DNA from: an uncultured Gammaproteobacteria bacterium
Lineage (GTDB): Bacteria > Patescibacteriota > Patescibacteriia > UBA9934
NCBI GenBank assembly: GCA_964452565.1
Contig: CAYVLY010000001.1
Coordinates: 78,638-142,637 of the forward strand
Direction of reading: 5' to 3'
Length of the DNA: 64,000 nt
Shown here: in pieces, positions 20,917 to 61,878 of the stretch
How the letters are laid out: every line of letters begins with the position of its first letter
How positions within the stretch are numbered: the first letter of the stretch is position 1
The notes under the pieces: model-generated
Seen by the model: only the letters and a program-made list of their open reading frames with translations
What the model was told of the DNA's origin: nothing
The model's database searches: none
Program-made: the position numbers and the translations under genes

Positions 20917-21465
20917 ATGGGGGAGTTGGAGGTAATAATTTTGATTCTATCATCAGTTATAGTTTTGTTGATTATTGCTGGTACAGTTCTTTCAATTCGA
21001 TTTAAGCACGCACGAGATAGGTTTGAGCAGATTTTTTTAAAGTCAAACGATGCAATGTTTCTTGTAGATATGTATGGAAAGATTAAAAAGGCAAACAAGG
21101 TGTCATCAGAGTTATTTAGGTACGATCTAAAGGTATTGAAAAAAATGGCGGTTTTTGATCTTCACAAGCCAGAGGATATACCTAAAGCAAAGGAGATGTT
21201 TGAGAATATAAAGATGAGACCTGGATCAAAGTTTGAACTTGAGTTAGTTAGATCTGATCAAGAGTCAATAGATGTTGAGATATCAGCAAGCTTGATCGAT
21301 AAGTCAACCATGCTTGCGATTATGAGAGATATTTCTGGACACAAGTTAAGAGAAGTCCAGATGAAAAAGAAGGCTGAAGAACTACAAAGAATCAATAAAC
21401 TCATGATTGGACGAGAGTTGAAGATGAAAGAGATGAAGCAACATATAAGTAATAACAGAAAATAA
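20917..21465 (+). CDS. Membrane-anchored PAS-domain protein with coiled-coil tail ending in an INKLMIGRELKM motif
   Basis: N-terminal TM, PAS-like FLKSNDAMFLVDMYGKIKKAN; gene ends 2 nt before the histidine kinase. Confidence 0.55.
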   Translation: MGELEVIILILSSVIVLLIIAGTVLSIRFKHARDRFEQIFLKSNDAMFLVDMYGKIKKANKVSSELFRYDLKVLKKMAVFDLHKPEDIPKAKEMFENIKMRPGSKFELELVRSDQESIDVEISASLIDKSTMLAIMRDISGHKLREVQMKKKAEELQRINKLMIGRELKMKEMKQHISNNRK

Positions 21466-21467
21466 TC

Positions 21468-23912
21468 ATGCAGCCAGGTGGACTAAAAAATAAACTCTCT
21501 TTAGCAGTAGTTGCTATTATTGCTGTTTTGGGATTGGCTGCGACATTGATGGTTTACCGCTATGCAAGTCAAGAGTTTTTGGAGTATGAAAAGGGTGAGG
21601 TAGAGCTTACTGCAACTGAGAAATCAAACCAGATCAATTCAATAATGAATTATGGCTTCGCTGCTGTAACTACACTTGGTAGCCATCAGGCTGTTGCAGA
21701 TTTTGTAACAGGAGCAGATGGAAGGATTACGCAGGAGCAGATGTTGAATCAGTTAATTGATGCTAATATTGCTGATTTGTTTTCTGCTATTTATATAATG
21801 GATGAAACTGGCTTAACCCTGGTCTCAACTGATGAAAGATTTACTGGAAACAACTACGGGTTTAGAACGTACTTCGAAACTGCAAAAAATGGTGAGGTTT
21901 CGGTTGATGTAGCGCTTGGGGTAACGAGCCAGAAAATTGGATTCTATTTCTCAAGCCCTATTTATGATAGTGCTGGTGAATTTGCAGGTGTTGTTGTTGC
22001 AAAGCTAGAGCCTGATGCACTTGGTGGAGTACTTGCACTGCCATCTGTCATGCAACACGCACACATAATGTTTGTTGATCGCTTTGGTGTGATCGTATAT
22101 TCAGGTAATACAGAACATGAATTGATGGCTCTATCAGAACTTGACGATGATCAGCTTGCGGAGATTGATGAAAAAAGATATTACGAGGGCGCAATGTTGG
22201 CGTCTATGGGGCTAGATCAGATTGCAGATTCTCTATTTATACAAGATTACTATTTGATAAAGAGTGTTGAGAGTGCCACAGGCGAGGAATTCATTATAGG
22301 GATTGATAGAATCGGTGATACTTCTTTTCATCTTTTAATAATGGAGGAAACTGAGCATTATCTTGTTGCAGTAAGAAATCTTGCATATCTAATCTCGCTT
22401 TTCGTACTTTTAGCTGCAGTTCTTGCTGCATTAATTATTTCAGGAATTATCTCTCGATTTTTGTCACCACTTGATAAGTTGCGTATTGCTGCGCAAAGGA
22501 TTACGGCTGGGGATTTTTCTCAAAGTGTGGATATCGAGCAAAAGAATGAACTCGGACTTTTGGCACAGGCGTTTAATAGAATGATGAGCTCTTTGATAAG
22601 TGAAAAGGAGCGAGTCGATCAACAGATCTCAGTACAGACCGAACAGTTACGATCGCAGACCGGTGAGCTTGAACAGCGTCAAGCAGCTATGATGAATGTG
22701 CTTGAGGATGTGGCAGATGAAAAGAATAAGACCCAGCAGGTTGCCCAAGATCTACGCAAGTTCAAAATGGCTGTTGATGGAACATCTGATCATGTTGTAT
22801 TAACTGATCCCAATGGAGTAGTTCTTTATGCAAATCCTGCAGTAAAACGCATTACAGGTTTTTCTATTGAGGAGGTAGTTGGTAAGAAAGTTGGCATAAA
22901 GATGATGTGGGGAGGTTTGATGGATTTGGGCTTTTACAAAAAACTATGGGATACGATAAAGATCCAAAAAAGAGTGTTTGTTGGCGAAATCCTCAATAAA
23001 CGAAAAAATGGCGATTTATACGAAGCTGCTGTGACCATAACCCCAATCCTTGATGAAAAAAATAATGTGATTTTCTTTTTGGGTATTGAACGCGACATTA
23101 CGATTGAGAAGAACATCGAACGCGCAAAATCTGACTTTGTTTCTTTAGCATCTCATCAGCTTCGTACCCCGCTGACTGCTATTCGTTGGTATCTTGATTT
23201 GATGCTAGAGGGAGATGTCGGGAAGATGACAGAGGAGCAACTGGATTATCTGAATACAATCAAAGTCAGCAATATACGAATGGTTAATCTTGTTAACTCA
23301 CTATTGAATGTGTCTAGGCTTGAGCTTGGAACCTTCTCTGTTGATCCAGAACCAGTTGACCTCATCAAGATGATCAAGTCTGAATTAGAAGAGCTTGGTG
23401 TGCAGATTCGAACAAAGAGGTTAACACTTGCTGAGAATTATGATCAAACAATTGGCGAACTATCTCTTGATGTTAATTTATCAAGTATTGTTGTTCAAAA
23501 TATCATTTCTAATGCTGTTAAGTATACAAAGGATGAGGGTGAGATATACATTGATCTTTATCAAGGAACTCAAAAGGGTAATCCGAGCAAGAGCCCAACA
23601 CATGTTATCTTTAAAGTTCGAGATACTGGTGAGGGAATTCCTCAAAGTGATCAGCATAGGATTTTTGAAAAGATGTTCCGTGCTGATAATGCTCGAACAA
23701 TAGATCCAGAAGGAAATGGACTCGGACTCTATATGGTCAAGAAAGTTATTGAGGAGACTGGTGGAAGGATTTGGTTTGAAAGTAAAGAGAATGAAGGCAC
23801 TACGTTCTATGTTGCGATTCCAAAGAAGGGGATGAAGAGGCGTGAAGGGACTAAGAGATTGGCATCAGAAGTTGTAAAATCAAATGGCATTAAGCCAGCT
23901 TCAGATAAGTAA
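21468..23912 (+). CDS. Sensor histidine kinase (TM - Cache-like - TM - HAMP - coiled coil - PAS - HisKA - HATPase_c)
   Basis: HAMP LDKLRIAAQRITAGDFSQ.., H-box SHQLRTPLTAI, G-boxes DTGEGIP and GNGLGLYMVKK. Confidence 0.85.
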   Translation: MQPGGLKNKLSLAVVAIIAVLGLAATLMVYRYASQEFLEYEKGEVELTATEKSNQINSIMNYGFAAVTTLGSHQAVADFVTGADGRITQEQMLNQLIDANIADLFSAIYIMDETGLTLVSTDERFTGNNYGFRTYFETAKNGEVSVDVALGVTSQKIGFYFSSPIYDSAGEFAGVVVAKLEPDALGGVLALPSVMQHAHIMFVDRFGVIVYSGNTEHELMALSELDDDQLAEIDEKRYYEGAMLASMGLDQIADSLFIQDYYLIKSVESATGEEFIIGIDRIGDTSFHLLIMEETEHYLVAVRNLAYLISLFVLLAAVLAALIISGIISRFLSPLDKLRIAAQRITAGDFSQSVDIEQKNELGLLAQAFNRMMSSLISEKERVDQQISVQTEQLRSQTGELEQRQAAMMNVLEDVADEKNKTQQVAQDLRKFKMAVDGTSDHVVLTDPNGVVLYANPAVKRITGFSIEEVVGKKVGIKMMWGGLMDLGFYKKLWDTIKIQKRVFVGEILNKRKNGDLYEAAVTITPILDEKNNVIFFLGIERDITIEKNIERAKSDFVSLASHQLRTPLTAIRWYLDLMLEGDVGKMTEEQLDYLNTIKVSNIRMVNLVNSLLNVSRLELGTFSVDPEPVDLIKMIKSELEELGVQIRTKRLTLAENYDQTIGELSLDVNLSSIVVQNIISNAVKYTKDEGEIYIDLYQGTQKGNPSKSPTHVIFKVRDTGEGIPQSDQHRIFEKMFRADNARTIDPEGNGLGLYMVKKVIEETGGRIWFESKENEGTTFYVAIPKKGMKRREGTKRLASEVVKSNGIKPASDK

Positions 23913-24022: not shown

Positions 24023-24097
24023 GGCCCTATCGTCTAGCGGCTAGGACGCCGCCCTCTCACGGCGGAAACCCGGGTTCGATTCCCGGTAGGGTCACCA
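24023..24097 (+). tRNA. tRNA-Glu (anticodon CTC), encoded CCA
   Basis: Cloverleaf: acceptor ggcccta/tagggtc, anticodon stem ccgcc/ggcgg with loop ctCTCac, T-arm cgggttcgattcccg; promoter TTGCTT-16-TATACT at 23979..24006. Confidence 0.85.
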
Positions 24098-24100
24098 ATA

Positions 24101-24126
24101 AGAAAGCCACCGTAAGGTGGCTTTCT
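24101..24126 (+). terminator. Hairpin AGAAAGCCACC-gtaa-GGTGGCTTTCT + tattgg
   Basis: 11-bp perfect stem directly after the tRNA. Confidence 0.6.
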
Positions 24127-24133
24127 TATTGGT

Positions 24134-24225
24134 CTGCTGAATCGAACCCGGGTTGTGCAGGGTTTGATATCCCGGCTGTGTCCTTCCGAAGCCCGAAGGG
24201 CGAAGGAGGGTAGGGTCACCATAAG
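24134..24225. repeat. tRNA-fragment scar: inverted T-arm copy, T-arm-like segment, embedded GC-rich hairpin element (24181..24210) and degenerate tRNA 3'-end copy tagggtcacca-taag (24211..24225)
   Basis: gaatcgaacccggg is the reverse complement of the tRNA-Glu T-arm; gggtagggtcaccataag matches the tRNA 3' end with one deletion. Confidence 0.55.
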
Positions 24226-24395
24226 GGACTCGTCACCGCAACGGGTCTTTTGTTGTTCTAAAATTAGCGATAATTTTGTAGTTACAAGGTCAATTCTTAT
24301 CCAAGTGAATCTAATAAATAAAATGTTTTCAAAAATGGCATGTATGGTAGAATCTATCTAGAAAAAAGATGTTGAATATTTAGTTACAAAAAAAT

Positions 24396-25373
24396 ATGCA
24401 AGAAGAACGATCGATGTGTGGTAGGTGTGGGTATCCAACTCACATGGGAAAACATGCCCCAGATTGTGCGGCGTTAAAAAAAGGGTCAGAAAAAAAGTCT
24501 GACCAGGGAAATGAGGTTGATCCATATGGACCAGAGGCAATACGCCGTGATATTCAAAGCAAAGTAGAGATTCTTAGATCCTGGGCAGAAAGGCTGGGAC
24601 TTAAAGAGGGTAAGGATTTATTGATCATCGAAAGCATTGAAGATTTTGTTGGTGATGATTATGATATTGCCCCTCACGAAGCTAAGTCATTCGCAGTTGG
24701 TATTTTGGAACCACACTATAAAGCCTTCCGTGAGTATGTTTTAGGTGAGTACAGGCAACAGAGAAAAAAAAGGAATCCAAAAGGTGATGTGCAGATCTAC
24801 TATAGCTGGGGAGGAAGATTCCTTGTTGGGTGGGACGGGGTGCCATTCGAAACTGTAGCAATGGAAAGTATTGATCCGCCACGTGCTCAAACTCACCATG
24901 AAGAGTTCAAAAATTTTTTCAAGGATCGATATGGCTTTGAGTTCCCCACATCGGATATGCTTAACCCTTTGCTGGCTGAAATGAGTCGGGCTGGTCTTTC
25001 AACGTATGAACAGGCTCTTGCTAATCTGAAAGATAAACGAGGAGCCGGTACCCTCCCAGACGAGGGCTATGCAGCCATTGACTCATTGGAGTATGCCATT
25101 GTCATTCTGAAAGATGCAGCCTTAGGTAAAGCGCTCGTGGATCTACCTGAAACAATTGAGGGTGCAATGGAAGATAAAATGGCTCATTATGTTGATCTAA
25201 CCTATAACGCTGAGTCTATTATTGACTGTGATCAGGTAGCTGAACTATCTGGTTTACCGTTCTCTGACGATATTCGTCTGGATAAACTTTTTGATCGTTG
25301 GAATTTTGATCGAAATAGTATGGAAGATGTGTGTCATGGGTTTGCAGATTATTTAGACGAAGTTGGGCGCTAG
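24396..25373 (+). CDS. Hypothetical protein with N-terminal Cys/His cluster (CGRCGYPTHMGKHAPDC)
   Basis: 325-aa ORF lying between the tRNA-Glu and its 17-bp direct repeat; no recombinase motifs recognised. Confidence 0.55.
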   Translation: MQEERSMCGRCGYPTHMGKHAPDCAALKKGSEKKSDQGNEVDPYGPEAIRRDIQSKVEILRSWAERLGLKEGKDLLIIESIEDFVGDDYDIAPHEAKSFAVGILEPHYKAFREYVLGEYRQQRKKRNPKGDVQIYYSWGGRFLVGWDGVPFETVAMESIDPPRAQTHHEEFKNFFKDRYGFEFPTSDMLNPLLAEMSRAGLSTYEQALANLKDKRGAGTLPDEGYAAIDSLEYAIVILKDAALGKALVDLPETIEGAMEDKMAHYVDLTYNAESIIDCDQVAELSGLPFSDDIRLDKLFDRWNFDRNSMEDVCHGFADYLDEVGR

Positions 25374-25448
25374 AGTTTCAACTTGAATAACCAGAAAACA
25401 ACTCCATTTTTTTAATTCAGCTGCAAGATGGTTGAAACCAAGTCGCTC

Positions 25449-25465
25449 TAGGGTCACCAATAAGA
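25449..25465 (+). repeat. 17-bp exact direct repeat of the tRNA-Glu 3' end plus 6 downstream nt (TAGGGTCACCAATAAGA), att-like
   Basis: Identical to 24087..24103; followed by terminator hairpin AGACCGCAGG-atatac-CCTGCGGTCT (25463..25488), analogous to the hairpin after the tRNA. Confidence 0.65.
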
Positions 25466-25488
25466 CCGCAGGATATACCTGCGGTCTT
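25463..25488. terminator. Bidirectional terminator, 10-bp perfect stem AGACCGCAGG/CCTGCGGTCT
   Basis: Lies between convergent genes 24396..25373 (+) and 25510..26607 (-). Confidence 0.6.
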
Positions 25489-25509
25489 ATTGTTTAGTCT
25501 CCGATCGGA

Positions 25510-26607
25510 TTATAGATCAAATCCGGTTTGTTCTATGTATGCCTCGTAGATTTCTTTGTGCGTTCCGAAGTTGAATAGTCCCATGTCTTCAAGTTTCCCA
25601 ATTTCTGAGAAGAAGTAGTTAAGCAATACCACATTGTCTTTGACATATAGGTTTGATGGAATATAGACTGTCATCTTTGCAACCCCACGTTCGGGATCGT
25701 AGTGCTCTGCGACATCAATGATTGACGCGACAATCACATCAACATCCTGTGCGGTGAATTCACAACTTGAGCTTTTTCTACATTTATCATCTTCATCTTC
25801 TGCAGCATAGTCAAGCCTATCAATGCTTCCAGGCATCATTATGATAACCGGATCATCATCAGCTATAAGATCATTTGAGTCTGCAAGAGGGATGGGGTAG
25901 ATAGCCTCATAAATGTCTTCAGGAAGACTAACATGCCAGCCATCGCCTTTAATGTATTCATCTGTCCATTTTTCATCAGGTCGGTTTTCATAAGGGATTG
26001 CAAGCAGATGTGCGCCAACAATTCCGTTCAGATACTTGAATCCCGCAAGCGATGCAGCTGTTGCCCAGTCATTGATACTTCCACCACCAGAGCATCCCAG
26101 ATTGTTCTCCTCACCGATAAGATCATCAATGATTGATTTATTACGTTCAAATGACTTTGAATAATCCTCAGCACTGATTTCGATATCTGCATAGCGCGAT
26201 CCAAGATCGCAATGAGTCTGTACTCCATGTCCGCTTTCGAAGATTTCTTGCAAAATATTTATTCCCCAAATGCTGTTGGCGATTGCAAATGGTTTTTCAC
26301 TTTCAATACTTAAGATGGCCCCAACTGTATCAGCAAGCTCCATTGCAAAGCGTAACTGTTCAACATGAAGCAAAAATCCCATTTCGTTTTCATCGTCCGT
26401 GAACTCATGCTCCATATGAGTCATAATTGTGAGGTAAAGCTGGTTTTCAGGTTCATCAACATCATCCATGGATATAACACCTGGCGTAGTTTGATCATCT
26501 GAATCCTGTGGAACAGTCTCCTCCATCCAGAAGAAGAAAAGCGCCAATACTGCTAGAAGAATGACGATTATTATTGAAGTAAGAATGGCATTTCTATGTG
26601 ATTTCAT
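25510..26607 (-). CDS. Hypothetical membrane-anchored extracytoplasmic protein
   Basis: N-terminal TM helix then an acidic soluble domain; no recognisable catalytic motif. Confidence 0.5.
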   Translation of the reverse strand: MKSHRNAILTSIIIVILLAVLALFFFWMEETVPQDSDDQTTPGVISMDDVDEPENQLYLTIMTHMEHEFTDDENEMGFLLHVEQLRFAMELADTVGAILSIESEKPFAIANSIWGINILQEIFESGHGVQTHCDLGSRYADIEISAEDYSKSFERNKSIIDDLIGEENNLGCSGGGSINDWATAASLAGFKYLNGIVGAHLLAIPYENRPDEKWTDEYIKGDGWHVSLPEDIYEAIYPIPLADSNDLIADDDPVIIMMPGSIDRLDYAAEDEDDKCRKSSSCEFTAQDVDVIVASIIDVAEHYDPERGVAKMTVYIPSNLYVKDNVVLLNYFFSEIGKLEDMGLFNFGTHKEIYEAYIEQTGFDL

Positions 26608-44072: not shown

Positions 44073-44146
44073 TCCCGGATCGTCTAACGGCAGGACGTCT
44101 GGTTCTGGTCCAGAAAATCGGGGTTCGAATCCCTGTCCGGGAACCA
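44073..44146 (+). tRNA. tRNA-Gln (anticodon CTG), encoded CCA
   Basis: Acceptor tcccgga/tccggga, anticodon stem tctgg/ccaga with loop ttCTGgt, T-arm cggggttcgaatccctg. Confidence 0.85.
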
Positions 44147-44149
44147 AAA

Positions 44150-44177
44150 AACACCACTCAATGAGTGGTGTTTTTTG
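44150..44177 (+). terminator. Hairpin CACCACT-caatg-AGTGGTG + TTTTTTG
   Basis: Stem-loop followed by a T-run. Confidence 0.6.
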
Positions 44178-61698: not shown

Positions 61699-61786
61699 GG
61701 AGAGGTGGCCGAGTGGTTTAAGGCGCACGCTTGGAAAGCGTGTAAAGTGAAAGCTTTCGCAGGTTCGAATCCTGTTCTCTCCGCCA
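61699..61786 (+). tRNA. tRNA-Ser (anticodon GGA), long variable arm, encoded CCA
   Basis: Acceptor ggagagg/tctctcc, anticodon stem cacgc/gcgtg with loop ttGGAaa, variable arm gtaaagtgaaagctttcgc, T-arm caggttcgaatcctg. Confidence 0.85.
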
Positions 61787-61878
61787 TGAAAAGCAGATGA
61801 TCTCTTGATTGTCTGTTTTTATGCTAGGCCAACTGCTATAATAATTTTAGAACGTGCGAAATCACAAAATTTTATAAT

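Follow-up and report, generated by a model that had tools for sequence, protein, structure and literature searches.

In a 64,000-nt stretch of Patescibacteria DNA (contig CAYVLY010000001.1, assembly GCA_964452565.1; hereafter the window, whose positions are used throughout), the gene for p325, a 325-aa protein of an orphan family (24396..25373, + strand), lies between copies of the 3′ end of a tRNA-Glu gene. We hold, with somewhat better than even confidence, that the p325 segment entered by site-specific recombination at a core corresponding to this tRNA 3′ end. Directly observed were the repeats, the intact tRNA, an accessory gene, an insert and a window that hold no integrase, and parallel insertions elsewhere. 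The segment measures ~1.24 kb (24222-25459), or 1.36 kb when counted from the tRNA. Loci compared with the window carry numbers prefixed with L.

Repeats and hairpins at the tRNA-Glu locus

The tRNA-Glu(CTC) gene (24023..24097, + strand) was identified as intact by ARAGORN, scored 61.9 bits against the Rfam tRNA model and encodes its CCA; the gene and its promoter region align with the relative L157. The 17-mer TAGGGTCACCAATAAGA comprises the acceptor 3′ strand of this tRNA (its last 11 nt including CCA) and the 6 nt downstream. Its first copy, D0, runs from tRNA position 66 through the CCA and ATAAGA (24087..24103, + strand). The second, D2, is an exact match beyond p325 (25449..25465, + strand); it is a bare copy that begins at tRNA position 66 and is the probable attR, the right attachment (att) site. 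The 17-mer was found at 24087 and 25449 only in the window, even when up to three mismatches were allowed; shuffled sequences gave 0.17 matches at that tolerance, and by simple arithmetic ~7e-6 exact second copies of a given 17-mer are expected in 128 kb (two strands).

Both copies run into terminator-like hairpins. Hairpin t (24094..24133, + strand; inverted repeat I1) has an 18-bp perfect stem that starts in the ACCA of the tRNA, and it dominates the predicted fold of the region. Hairpin t'' (25458..25492, + strand; inverted repeat I4, also recovered in the terminator scan) has a 15-bp perfect stem, and its position would suit termination of both p325 and the convergent 365-aa gene. The two hairpins have the outer stem CAATAAGA/TCTTATTG in common, and their inner stems and loops are unrelated, which looks like the product of recombinant joints rather than of a drifting duplication. 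The second hairpin does not take in the TAGGGTCAC part of D2, which is an exact match to the tRNA acceptor strand. All three tRNA genes of the window encode CCA, and the stems of the hairpins that follow them (24094-24133, 44143-44177 and 61783-61830) begin within or right after it.

Between D0 and p325 lies a degenerate middle copy, D1 (GTAGGGTCACCA-TAAGG; 24210..24226, + strand), which on comparison of the repeats is the probable attL of the gene insert. Here 13 nt (GGTAGGGTCACCA, 24209-24221) are identical to the tRNA end, and TAAGG comes next. Upstream of D1, 16 nt repeat the T-stem 5′ strand and T-loop perfectly in inverted orientation (24139..24154, + strand; inverted repeat I2); their sequence GAATCGAACCCGGGTT is the complement of tRNA 24067-24082 and is predicted to fold back on 24160-24171. 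A direct degenerate T-arm fragment, GGGTTTGATATCCCGG (24160..24175, + strand), was read by comparison with the tRNA. It is followed by a 34-nt GC-rich hairpin (24176..24209, + strand), a dispersed repeat inserted at the T-stem/acceptor junction (tRNA positions 65/66); when this hairpin is removed, D1 completes a contiguous pseudo-3′-half of the tRNA. Thus the elements named in an earlier sequence-only reading were all recovered, including the exact and unique 17-mer with a terminator hairpin at each copy, the degenerate third copy, the inverted and direct T-arm fragments and the GC-rich insert.

The GC-rich hairpin was found again in the window with 29 of 30 nt matching, where none is expected by chance. 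The 30-nt unit, GTCCTTCCGAAGCCCG[A/C]AGGGCGAAGGAGG, occupies 480-509 and 24180-24209. The copy at 480 sits between an open reading frame (ORF) that ends in CPCGAVKPDGKPKKYKNCHGKNN (stop) and an out-of-ORF stretch, GSGKKYKKCHGA (stop). Its surroundings give the impression of a SecA-type C-terminal motif present in duplicate, as though the 3′ end of the gene had received the hairpin by insertion.

The locus region was 100% identical in two further assemblies, L014 and L015, so a one-off misassembly is unlikely; identical contigs come from the samples SRR8146440 and SRR8146441. The L015 contig (from SRR8146440) begins precisely at the first base of tRNA-Glu (L015:1-75), which may reflect strain heterogeneity 5′ of the tRNA in that sample.

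The p325 gene is accessory at the tRNA-Glu locus

The gene on the far side of the insert, p365 (365 aa; 25510..26607, - strand), was used as a marker of the chromosomal side on the strength of its homologues and synteny in L157, L158/159 and L160. No match to p365 was found in Pfam, PHROGs, PADLOC or NCBIfam; in the relatives it also adjoins the Na+/H+ exchanger gene (NhaP). The syntenic relatives found via p365 are Patescibacteria, one of them labeled Candidatus Uhrbacteria. Analysis of the UppP...NhaP-HrcA-GrpE-DnaK locus revealed that p325 is absent there in L157, L158/159, L160 and L131. The gene order in L157 is DUF8128, TraG-like, UppP, a 665-bp gap with tRNA-Glu(CTC), p365, NhaP, HrcA, GrpE and DnaK, and its proteins are closely related to those of the window (UppP 74%, NhaP 86% and DnaK 95% aa identity). 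Across L157-L160 the identities were 84-88% for NhaP and 90-95% for DnaK, with lower values for L131. Different genes stand beside p365 in L158/159 and in L160, and the L131 locus reads UppP, an SPFH gene, tRNA-Glu and NhaP.

Nucleotide similarity between the window and other members of the p325 family ends at the ORF borders. Together with the varied content of the relatives, this indicates that the interval is hypervariable and that p325 is lineage-specific at this locus; p325 is accessory there. Just upstream of tRNA-Glu (20917-23912) the window carries a PAS-domain gene and a gene for an 814-aa Cache/HAMP/PAS histidine kinase. Both are missing in L157, where only palindromes and a foldback element separate UppP from the tRNA. 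Both sides of the tRNA are therefore variable. An exact metagenome scan with the 51-mer from the tRNA-Glu 3′ end gave no match and so brought in no very close relatives.

Unrelated cargo is bounded by the same core in other Patescibacteria

The 3′ half of tRNA-Glu was searched as an exact pattern in 185,579 species genomes, which gave 119 loci, almost all from Patescibacteria. At 109 of them the downstream sequence exceeded 400 nt; of these, 14 had a further exact copy of the 8-mer TAGGGTCA within 1 kb downstream, and 15 had an inverted TGACCCTA. The 8-mer was enriched downstream of tRNA-Glu, and upstream counts were at chance level. Conserved neighbors of tRNA-Glu were housekeeping genes only.

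This analysis revealed unrelated, integrase-less cargo of 1.4-3.6 kb at the same tRNA-Glu 3′-end sequence; besides the window, at least seven species-level genomes have such cargo bounded by the core. The L064 insert, 2.26 kb long and with three genes (DUF5680, NUDIX and one unknown), lies between TAGGGTCACACGTAG and TAGGGTCACGCGTAG, and its bounding copies read TAGGGTCAC[A/G]CGTAG. L031 is a related locus that lacks this insert; two modules are common to L064 and L031, with 79-89% nucleotide identity. These two species give the one clean pair of an occupied and an empty site. In L069, an exact 100-bp repeat that starts from TAGGGTCA surrounds 3.57 kb with a UDG gene and three unknown genes. 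Distal core copies with no preceding T-stem were also present in L022, L076, L104 and L105. Three cases are well resolved (the window, L064 and L069), and in each of them tRNA position 66 is the exact start of the distal copy, as a fixed crossover or attP boundary predicts. The eight cargo sets had no protein family in common and held no recombinase. L105 further contains a direct repeat of more than 60 nt with CCGATTCCCGGTAGGGTCTATAC... around a 107-aa ORF (~+1904 and ~+2711 from the tRNA end), and a 486-aa protein with repeated helix-turn-helix-like segments is encoded between the tRNA and the first repeat copy.

We also considered p325 itself as the recombinase. This candidate was ruled out, since other cargo occupies the same site with no p325. 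A cognate integrative and conjugative element (ICE) or integrative and mobilizable element (IME) with the same site specificity was found neither in the window nor in the 119 tRNA-Glu loci.

Proposed mechanism of entry

The core would extend from tRNA position 66 (TAGGGTCA) through the encoded CCA and a few bases into the terminator. In the proposed mechanism, a circular donor that carried the core once underwent recombination with a copy in the chromosome, most probably the pseudo-3′-end D1 already present downstream of the tRNA. The product would have D1 as attL and D2 as attR, the tRNA would remain intact, and each unit would keep a terminator. The recombinase, which we infer to have been of the tyrosine type, is not encoded in the segment and would have acted in trans or have been lost, leaving an integrase-less, att-flanked islet similar to a cis-mobilizable element (CIME).

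The circular intermediate and the identity of the crossover pair are likewise deduced from the arrangement of the copies. D1 and D2 have the sequence TAGGGTCACCA[A]TAAG in common, and alignment of 24211 with 25449 gave agreement at 15 of 16 nt with one indel. Since D1 is probably a resident feature and carries this sequence in common with D2, the assignment of D1 as attL and D2 as attR is favored, and D1/D2 appears more likely as the att pair than D0/D2, the perfect 17-mer, which is a possible pair. If D1 and D2 are the pair, the right flank of D1 would be donor-derived and the right flank of D2, with the second hairpin, would be chromosomal; the expected junctions would then be ...GGAGGGTAGGGTCACCAATAAGACCGCAGG... 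in the excised chromosome and ...AAGTCGCTCTAGGGTCACCATAAGGGACTCG... in the circle. The att-scar interpretation of the sequence-only reading is supported as to the accessory cargo, the tRNA-end copies and the intact tRNA, and by the parallels in other species; its pairing of D0 with D2 is the less likely one, and the search for a clean empty site yielded none.

Comparison with known tRNA-associated elements

The Yersinia high-pathogenicity island (HPI) at asn tRNA exemplifies a type of island that has a tRNA 3′ end repeated over 16-20 bp on both sides. Like such islands, the window has a direct repeat of the tRNA 3′ end, a regenerated tRNA, a displaced fragment at the far end, accessory cargo and signs of site reuse. 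Unlike them, its insert has no integrase, measures 1.2-1.4 kb, holds a single gene with no phage or conjugation genes, and shows no compositional contrast. In the account given with the Islander catalog of genomic islands and prophages at tRNA and tmRNA genes, islands integrate at tRNA genes via tyrosine integrases, and the regenerated gene and displaced fragment mark their ends (PMC4383910).

A closer likeness is to CIMEs, decayed ICE or IME remnants that keep attL and attR and have lost the genes for integration and transfer (PMC5704250). The locus retains attL and attR around a single orphan ORF and holds no integration or transfer genes. CIMEs also resemble it in the missing recombination module, in tandem att-like copies at the target gene's end and, presumably, in dependence on a recombinase supplied in trans. 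The window differs in that its core has no known cognate ICE, IME or integrase, in its one orphan gene and in its ~0.7-Mb Patescibacteria host; in addition, the neighboring att-like copy is part of a foldback element and not an obvious decayed element. The locus is an integrase-less, att-flanked islet at a tRNA gene, a known kind of element. The sequence-only description of a decayed or trans-mobilized mini-island was therefore largely right: the islet is either trans-dependent or decayed, and most like a CIME.

Integron cassettes are comparable in being single ORFs with no recombinase of their own, and homologues of p325 occur in one-ORF arrays. In contrast, the repeat that bounds the window insert is the tRNA 3′ end with perfect hairpins, and no IntI was seen. 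No attC site was found 3′ of p325, where only the tRNA-end copy and the perfect 15-bp hairpin follow.

Successive integrations have left tRNA-fragment "fossils" next to archaeal tRNA genes. The window resembles these in that several incomplete tRNA 3′ copies follow one another downstream of a single tRNA; it differs in that one of them is part of an inverted-plus-direct foldback also seen in relatives, which in other species is a covarying module.

The middle copy fits a recurrent foldback layout

The sequence-only reading had proposed that the site was hit more than once. In L157, a terminator comes first after the tRNA, next an inverted T-loop copy (GGGAATCGAAC), and then structured sequence, behind which stand a direct copy (CCGTGGGGTCACCA) and TAA; GAATCGAAC stands in the place of the inverted fragment of the window, and CCGTGGGGTCACCATAA is the equivalent of D1. 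The middle elements of L157 and the window would be orthologous by position only, as their inner parts cannot be aligned. Given this same layout in L157 and a phylum-wide foldback architecture, the middle copy need not record a separate integration, and D1 probably is resident sequence and not the scar of a second hit. The comparison thus gave no support for repeated hits.

A window-like layout was also observed at tRNA-Gln(CTG) in L144 (3555-3900), where a palindromic terminator, a foldback element, a second hairpin and a p325 homologue follow the tRNA; this foldback has an inverted T-loop/T-stem copy at its start and closes with a copy of the tRNA-Gln 3′ end in direct orientation (GTCCCCGAGC). 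Weaker forms occur at tRNA-Pro (L008) and tRNA-Ser (L005). In L005 (4655-5050), a disrupted copy of tRNA-Ser stands upstream of tRNA-Ser(TGA) and a 3′ fragment downstream of it, and the T-loop of this fragment is broken by a GC-rich hairpin (CCAGCCCTTCGTGAAGGGCAGGG) in the style of the window insert.

Downstream of tRNA-Glu in many Patescibacteria we identified a module of 115-180 nt, with an inverted copy first and a direct copy of the tRNA T-stem/acceptor 3′ strand last. Its parts are, in order, TGACCCTAAGC, a hairpin of 9 bp, GCGTCCGGGAATCGAA, two hairpins whose joining strands (GGTRTACTG) are conserved, and GAT..CCCGGTAGGGTCA. A covariance model (R1), built from tRNA-Glu loci of Patescibacteria, describes four covarying helices and a closing helix that copies the tRNA end, and it recovered 31 copies in tRNA-Glu and tRNA-Val loci (including L072, L122, L064, L066, L076, L031, L052, L045, L089, L032, L037, L069 and L114). 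RNAalifold identified compensatory changes in 21 of 28 module pairs. In the R1 alignment, which is fitted to the model, 91.7% of cells pair compared with 70% in shuffles and 35-47% with slid partners, and 30 of 36 pairs are altered on both sides.

Four R1 copies (L113:4482-4597, L033:2364-2486(-), L024:7673-7791 and L091:2731-2830(-)) lie 5 nt after tRNA-Val(GAC) with no terminator between, and their terminal helices copy tRNA-Val and not tRNA-Glu. Because the module ends track the identity of the neighboring tRNA and no terminator intervenes, the sequences suggest that the module is co-transcribed with the tRNA as a tRNA-like RNA. The possibility that it is a minus-strand tRNA or tmRNA was rejected, as ARAGORN found none and, by inspection, that strand cannot fold a T-arm. 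Rfam 15 does not contain the module, and its pattern was unmatched in IMG/VR. At Rfam gathering thresholds, a scan of the window and 14 related loci returned tRNAs only, and a permissive scan of the region gave chance-level matches only. The R1 model had no match in the window at E <= 1 and none in L144 or L157, so the middle segment of the window was not filed as a member of the module; it has in common with it only the layout of an inverted T-loop copy followed by a direct acceptor copy.

The p325 family

The p325 ORF is preceded by a promoter-like site (TTTTCA, 16 nt, TAGAAT, with TG; 24326..24353, + strand), as judged by a consensus scan only. The protein contains CGRCGYPTHMGKHAPDC; the metal-binding-like motif noted in the sequence-only reading is present as an N-terminal CxxC...H...C pattern and is restricted to the three closest homologues. 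No match to p325 was found in Pfam, PHROGs, PADLOC, NCBIfam or PDB sequence profiles. The family is small, with 35 homologues in 5.8 billion clustered proteins and 36 clusters in 1.84 billion representatives; an identical protein is present on a 709-kb NCBI contig. An AlphaFold (AF2) model of p325 was well scored (predicted local distance difference test, pLDDT, 88; predicted template modeling score, pTM, 0.80) and had no significant fold match in PDB or BFVD. The weak matches were mostly Pol-beta-type nucleotidyltransferases, including CCA-adding enzymes and CD-NTases, all non-significant (E >= 0.3), and the modeled likeness to nucleotidyltransferases serves as a lead only.

The genomic contexts of the family are many and unrelated, and most homologues have no nearby tRNA. 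Genes right behind a tRNA and a tRNA 3′ fragment were found at tRNA-Glu (the window), tRNA-Gln (L144) and tRNA-Pro (L008), and in L005 one ORF intervenes between tRNA-Ser and the homologue.

L011 (1357-2990), with the same arrangement in L012, encodes a large serine recombinase and, downstream of it, a p325 homologue (60% identical). The gap between the two genes in L011 contains GCGGGTCACCA, which resembles a tRNA 3′ end with CCA and runs into the hairpin CCAAAAAATAAATTTTTGG. In L010 (1641-3125), a 494-aa ORF stands directly upstream of the closest homologue (72% identical); this ORF and p325 have an N-terminal Cys/His region in common (33% identity over 61 aa by tblastn), and the zinc-knuckle-like N-terminus seems to be a module common to neighboring genes.

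Other homologues occur in arrays of one-ORF units of 1.1-1.3 kb (L136, L137, L146 and L148). The array spacers are imperfect palindromes of 100-145 nt with ends ...(C)CTAAC / ACGTT(A/G)... and a 12-bp covarying stem. These attC-like palindromes are located at 72-208, ~1338-1560 and 2492-2636 in L137, at 73-184 and 2376-2518 in L148, at 900-995 in L136, and at ~130-250 and ~1540-1660 in L146. The arrays, on contigs of candidate phyla radiation (CPR) type, thus resemble integron attC-like cassette arrays. No integrase was visible on these short contigs.

Evidence against site-specific entry and alternative explanations

Several observations weigh against site-specific entry of the p325 segment. 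No integrase was found inside the element, where p325 is the sole ORF, as the sequence-only reading had stated, and phmmer searches of the window ORFs of at least 90 aa (queries: a XerD sequence and the L011 serine recombinase) returned no XerD-like or large serine recombinase. The insert is not compositionally distinct, as p325 and the window have the same GC content (0.435). The p325 family had no members in phage and plasmid collections (tblastn) or in IMG/VR (family scan). At the tRNA-adjacent homologues in L144 and L008 no far-side repeat was present. Comparison of the tRNA-Glu locus, the check proposed with the sequence-only reading, yielded four syntenic relatives with no p325 and no clean empty site: the tRNA is reversed relative to UppP and NhaP in L157 and L131, and with the tRNA inverted or absent in the syntenic relatives, an uninterrupted attB was not recovered. 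The inversion also means that at least one rearrangement occurred in addition.

These observations are in part what would be expected if no dedicated integrase were involved and the UppP-p365 interval were a hypervariable islet swapped by homologous or microhomology recombination after DNA uptake, an alternative that we consider unlikely and nevertheless the most serious. The tRNA-3′-end/terminator units would then serve as portable homology, and the 17-mer would be a by-product of recombination between paralogous units. Consistent with this, no recombinase was found in any cargo or in the window, the content differs in every relative, the tRNA is inverted in L157 and L131, and the histidine kinase and PAS genes across the tRNA are also missing in L157. 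The 100-bp exact repeat of L069 is long enough for RecA, and tRNA-end copies and inverted copies are reiterated around these tRNAs. However, the 15-17-nt repeats of the window and L064 are short for homologous recombination, and homology-driven exchange is expected to leave scattered breakpoints, whereas the distal copy starts at position 66 in three independent lineages.

It is improbable that p325 and the tRNA-like elements form a functional pair, in which p325 would act on, or be controlled by, mimics of the tRNA 3′ end; p325 could, for example, be a nucleotidyltransferase-like enzyme paired with a decoy RNA, in an arrangement resembling type III toxin-antitoxin systems (RNA gene, terminator, protein gene). 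The occurrence of homologues behind a tRNA and fragment elements at Glu, Gln and Pro, and at Ser with one ORF between, would suit such a pair, as would the weak Pol-beta-type fold matches. Those matches are all non-significant, however, and most homologues have no tRNA nearby, with some in the attC-like arrays or beside a serine recombinase. The family is also missing from the other cargo at the same tRNA-Glu sites, and in the window a strong terminator stands between the tRNA and the element.

Finally, a chance or convergent terminator sequence with no insertion history is highly improbable: 8 of the 17 nt (CAATAAGA) do form the base of the terminator stem in both copies, and terminators do start in or just after the CCA of all three window tRNAs, but the acceptor-strand match outside the second hairpin, the chance expectations given above and the absence of p325 from the relatives speak against it. 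That match and the differing terminators of the relatives also speak against conserved synteny with a terminator-derived repeat, the refutation that the sequence-only reading had envisaged.

Implications for gene entry into Patescibacteria

On its own, the locus is a small integrase-less islet at a tRNA site in a reduced genome, and it marks the entry of an accessory gene into Patescibacteria. To our knowledge, few mobile elements are known in Patescibacteria, which make up a large share of bacterial diversity; a literature search for tRNA-like or integrative elements in CPR/Patescibacteria found no paper. The locus gains greater weight as an entry point to the core-bounded cargo found across the phylum and to an undescribed module. 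We think it rather doubtful, as a wider reading, that Patescibacteria practice tRNA-anchored cassette capture, in which the ends of foldback modules would act as attI/attC-like sites for a trans-acting recombinase and the window locus would be a worn instance. In such a system, modules after tRNA-Glu, -Val and -Gln would reiterate the tRNA 3′ end, and one- to four-gene integrase-less cassettes would insert there. If the modules are indeed recombination sites, or tRNA-mimic RNAs, they would amount to a novel path by which genes are captured, or to a novel class of RNA.

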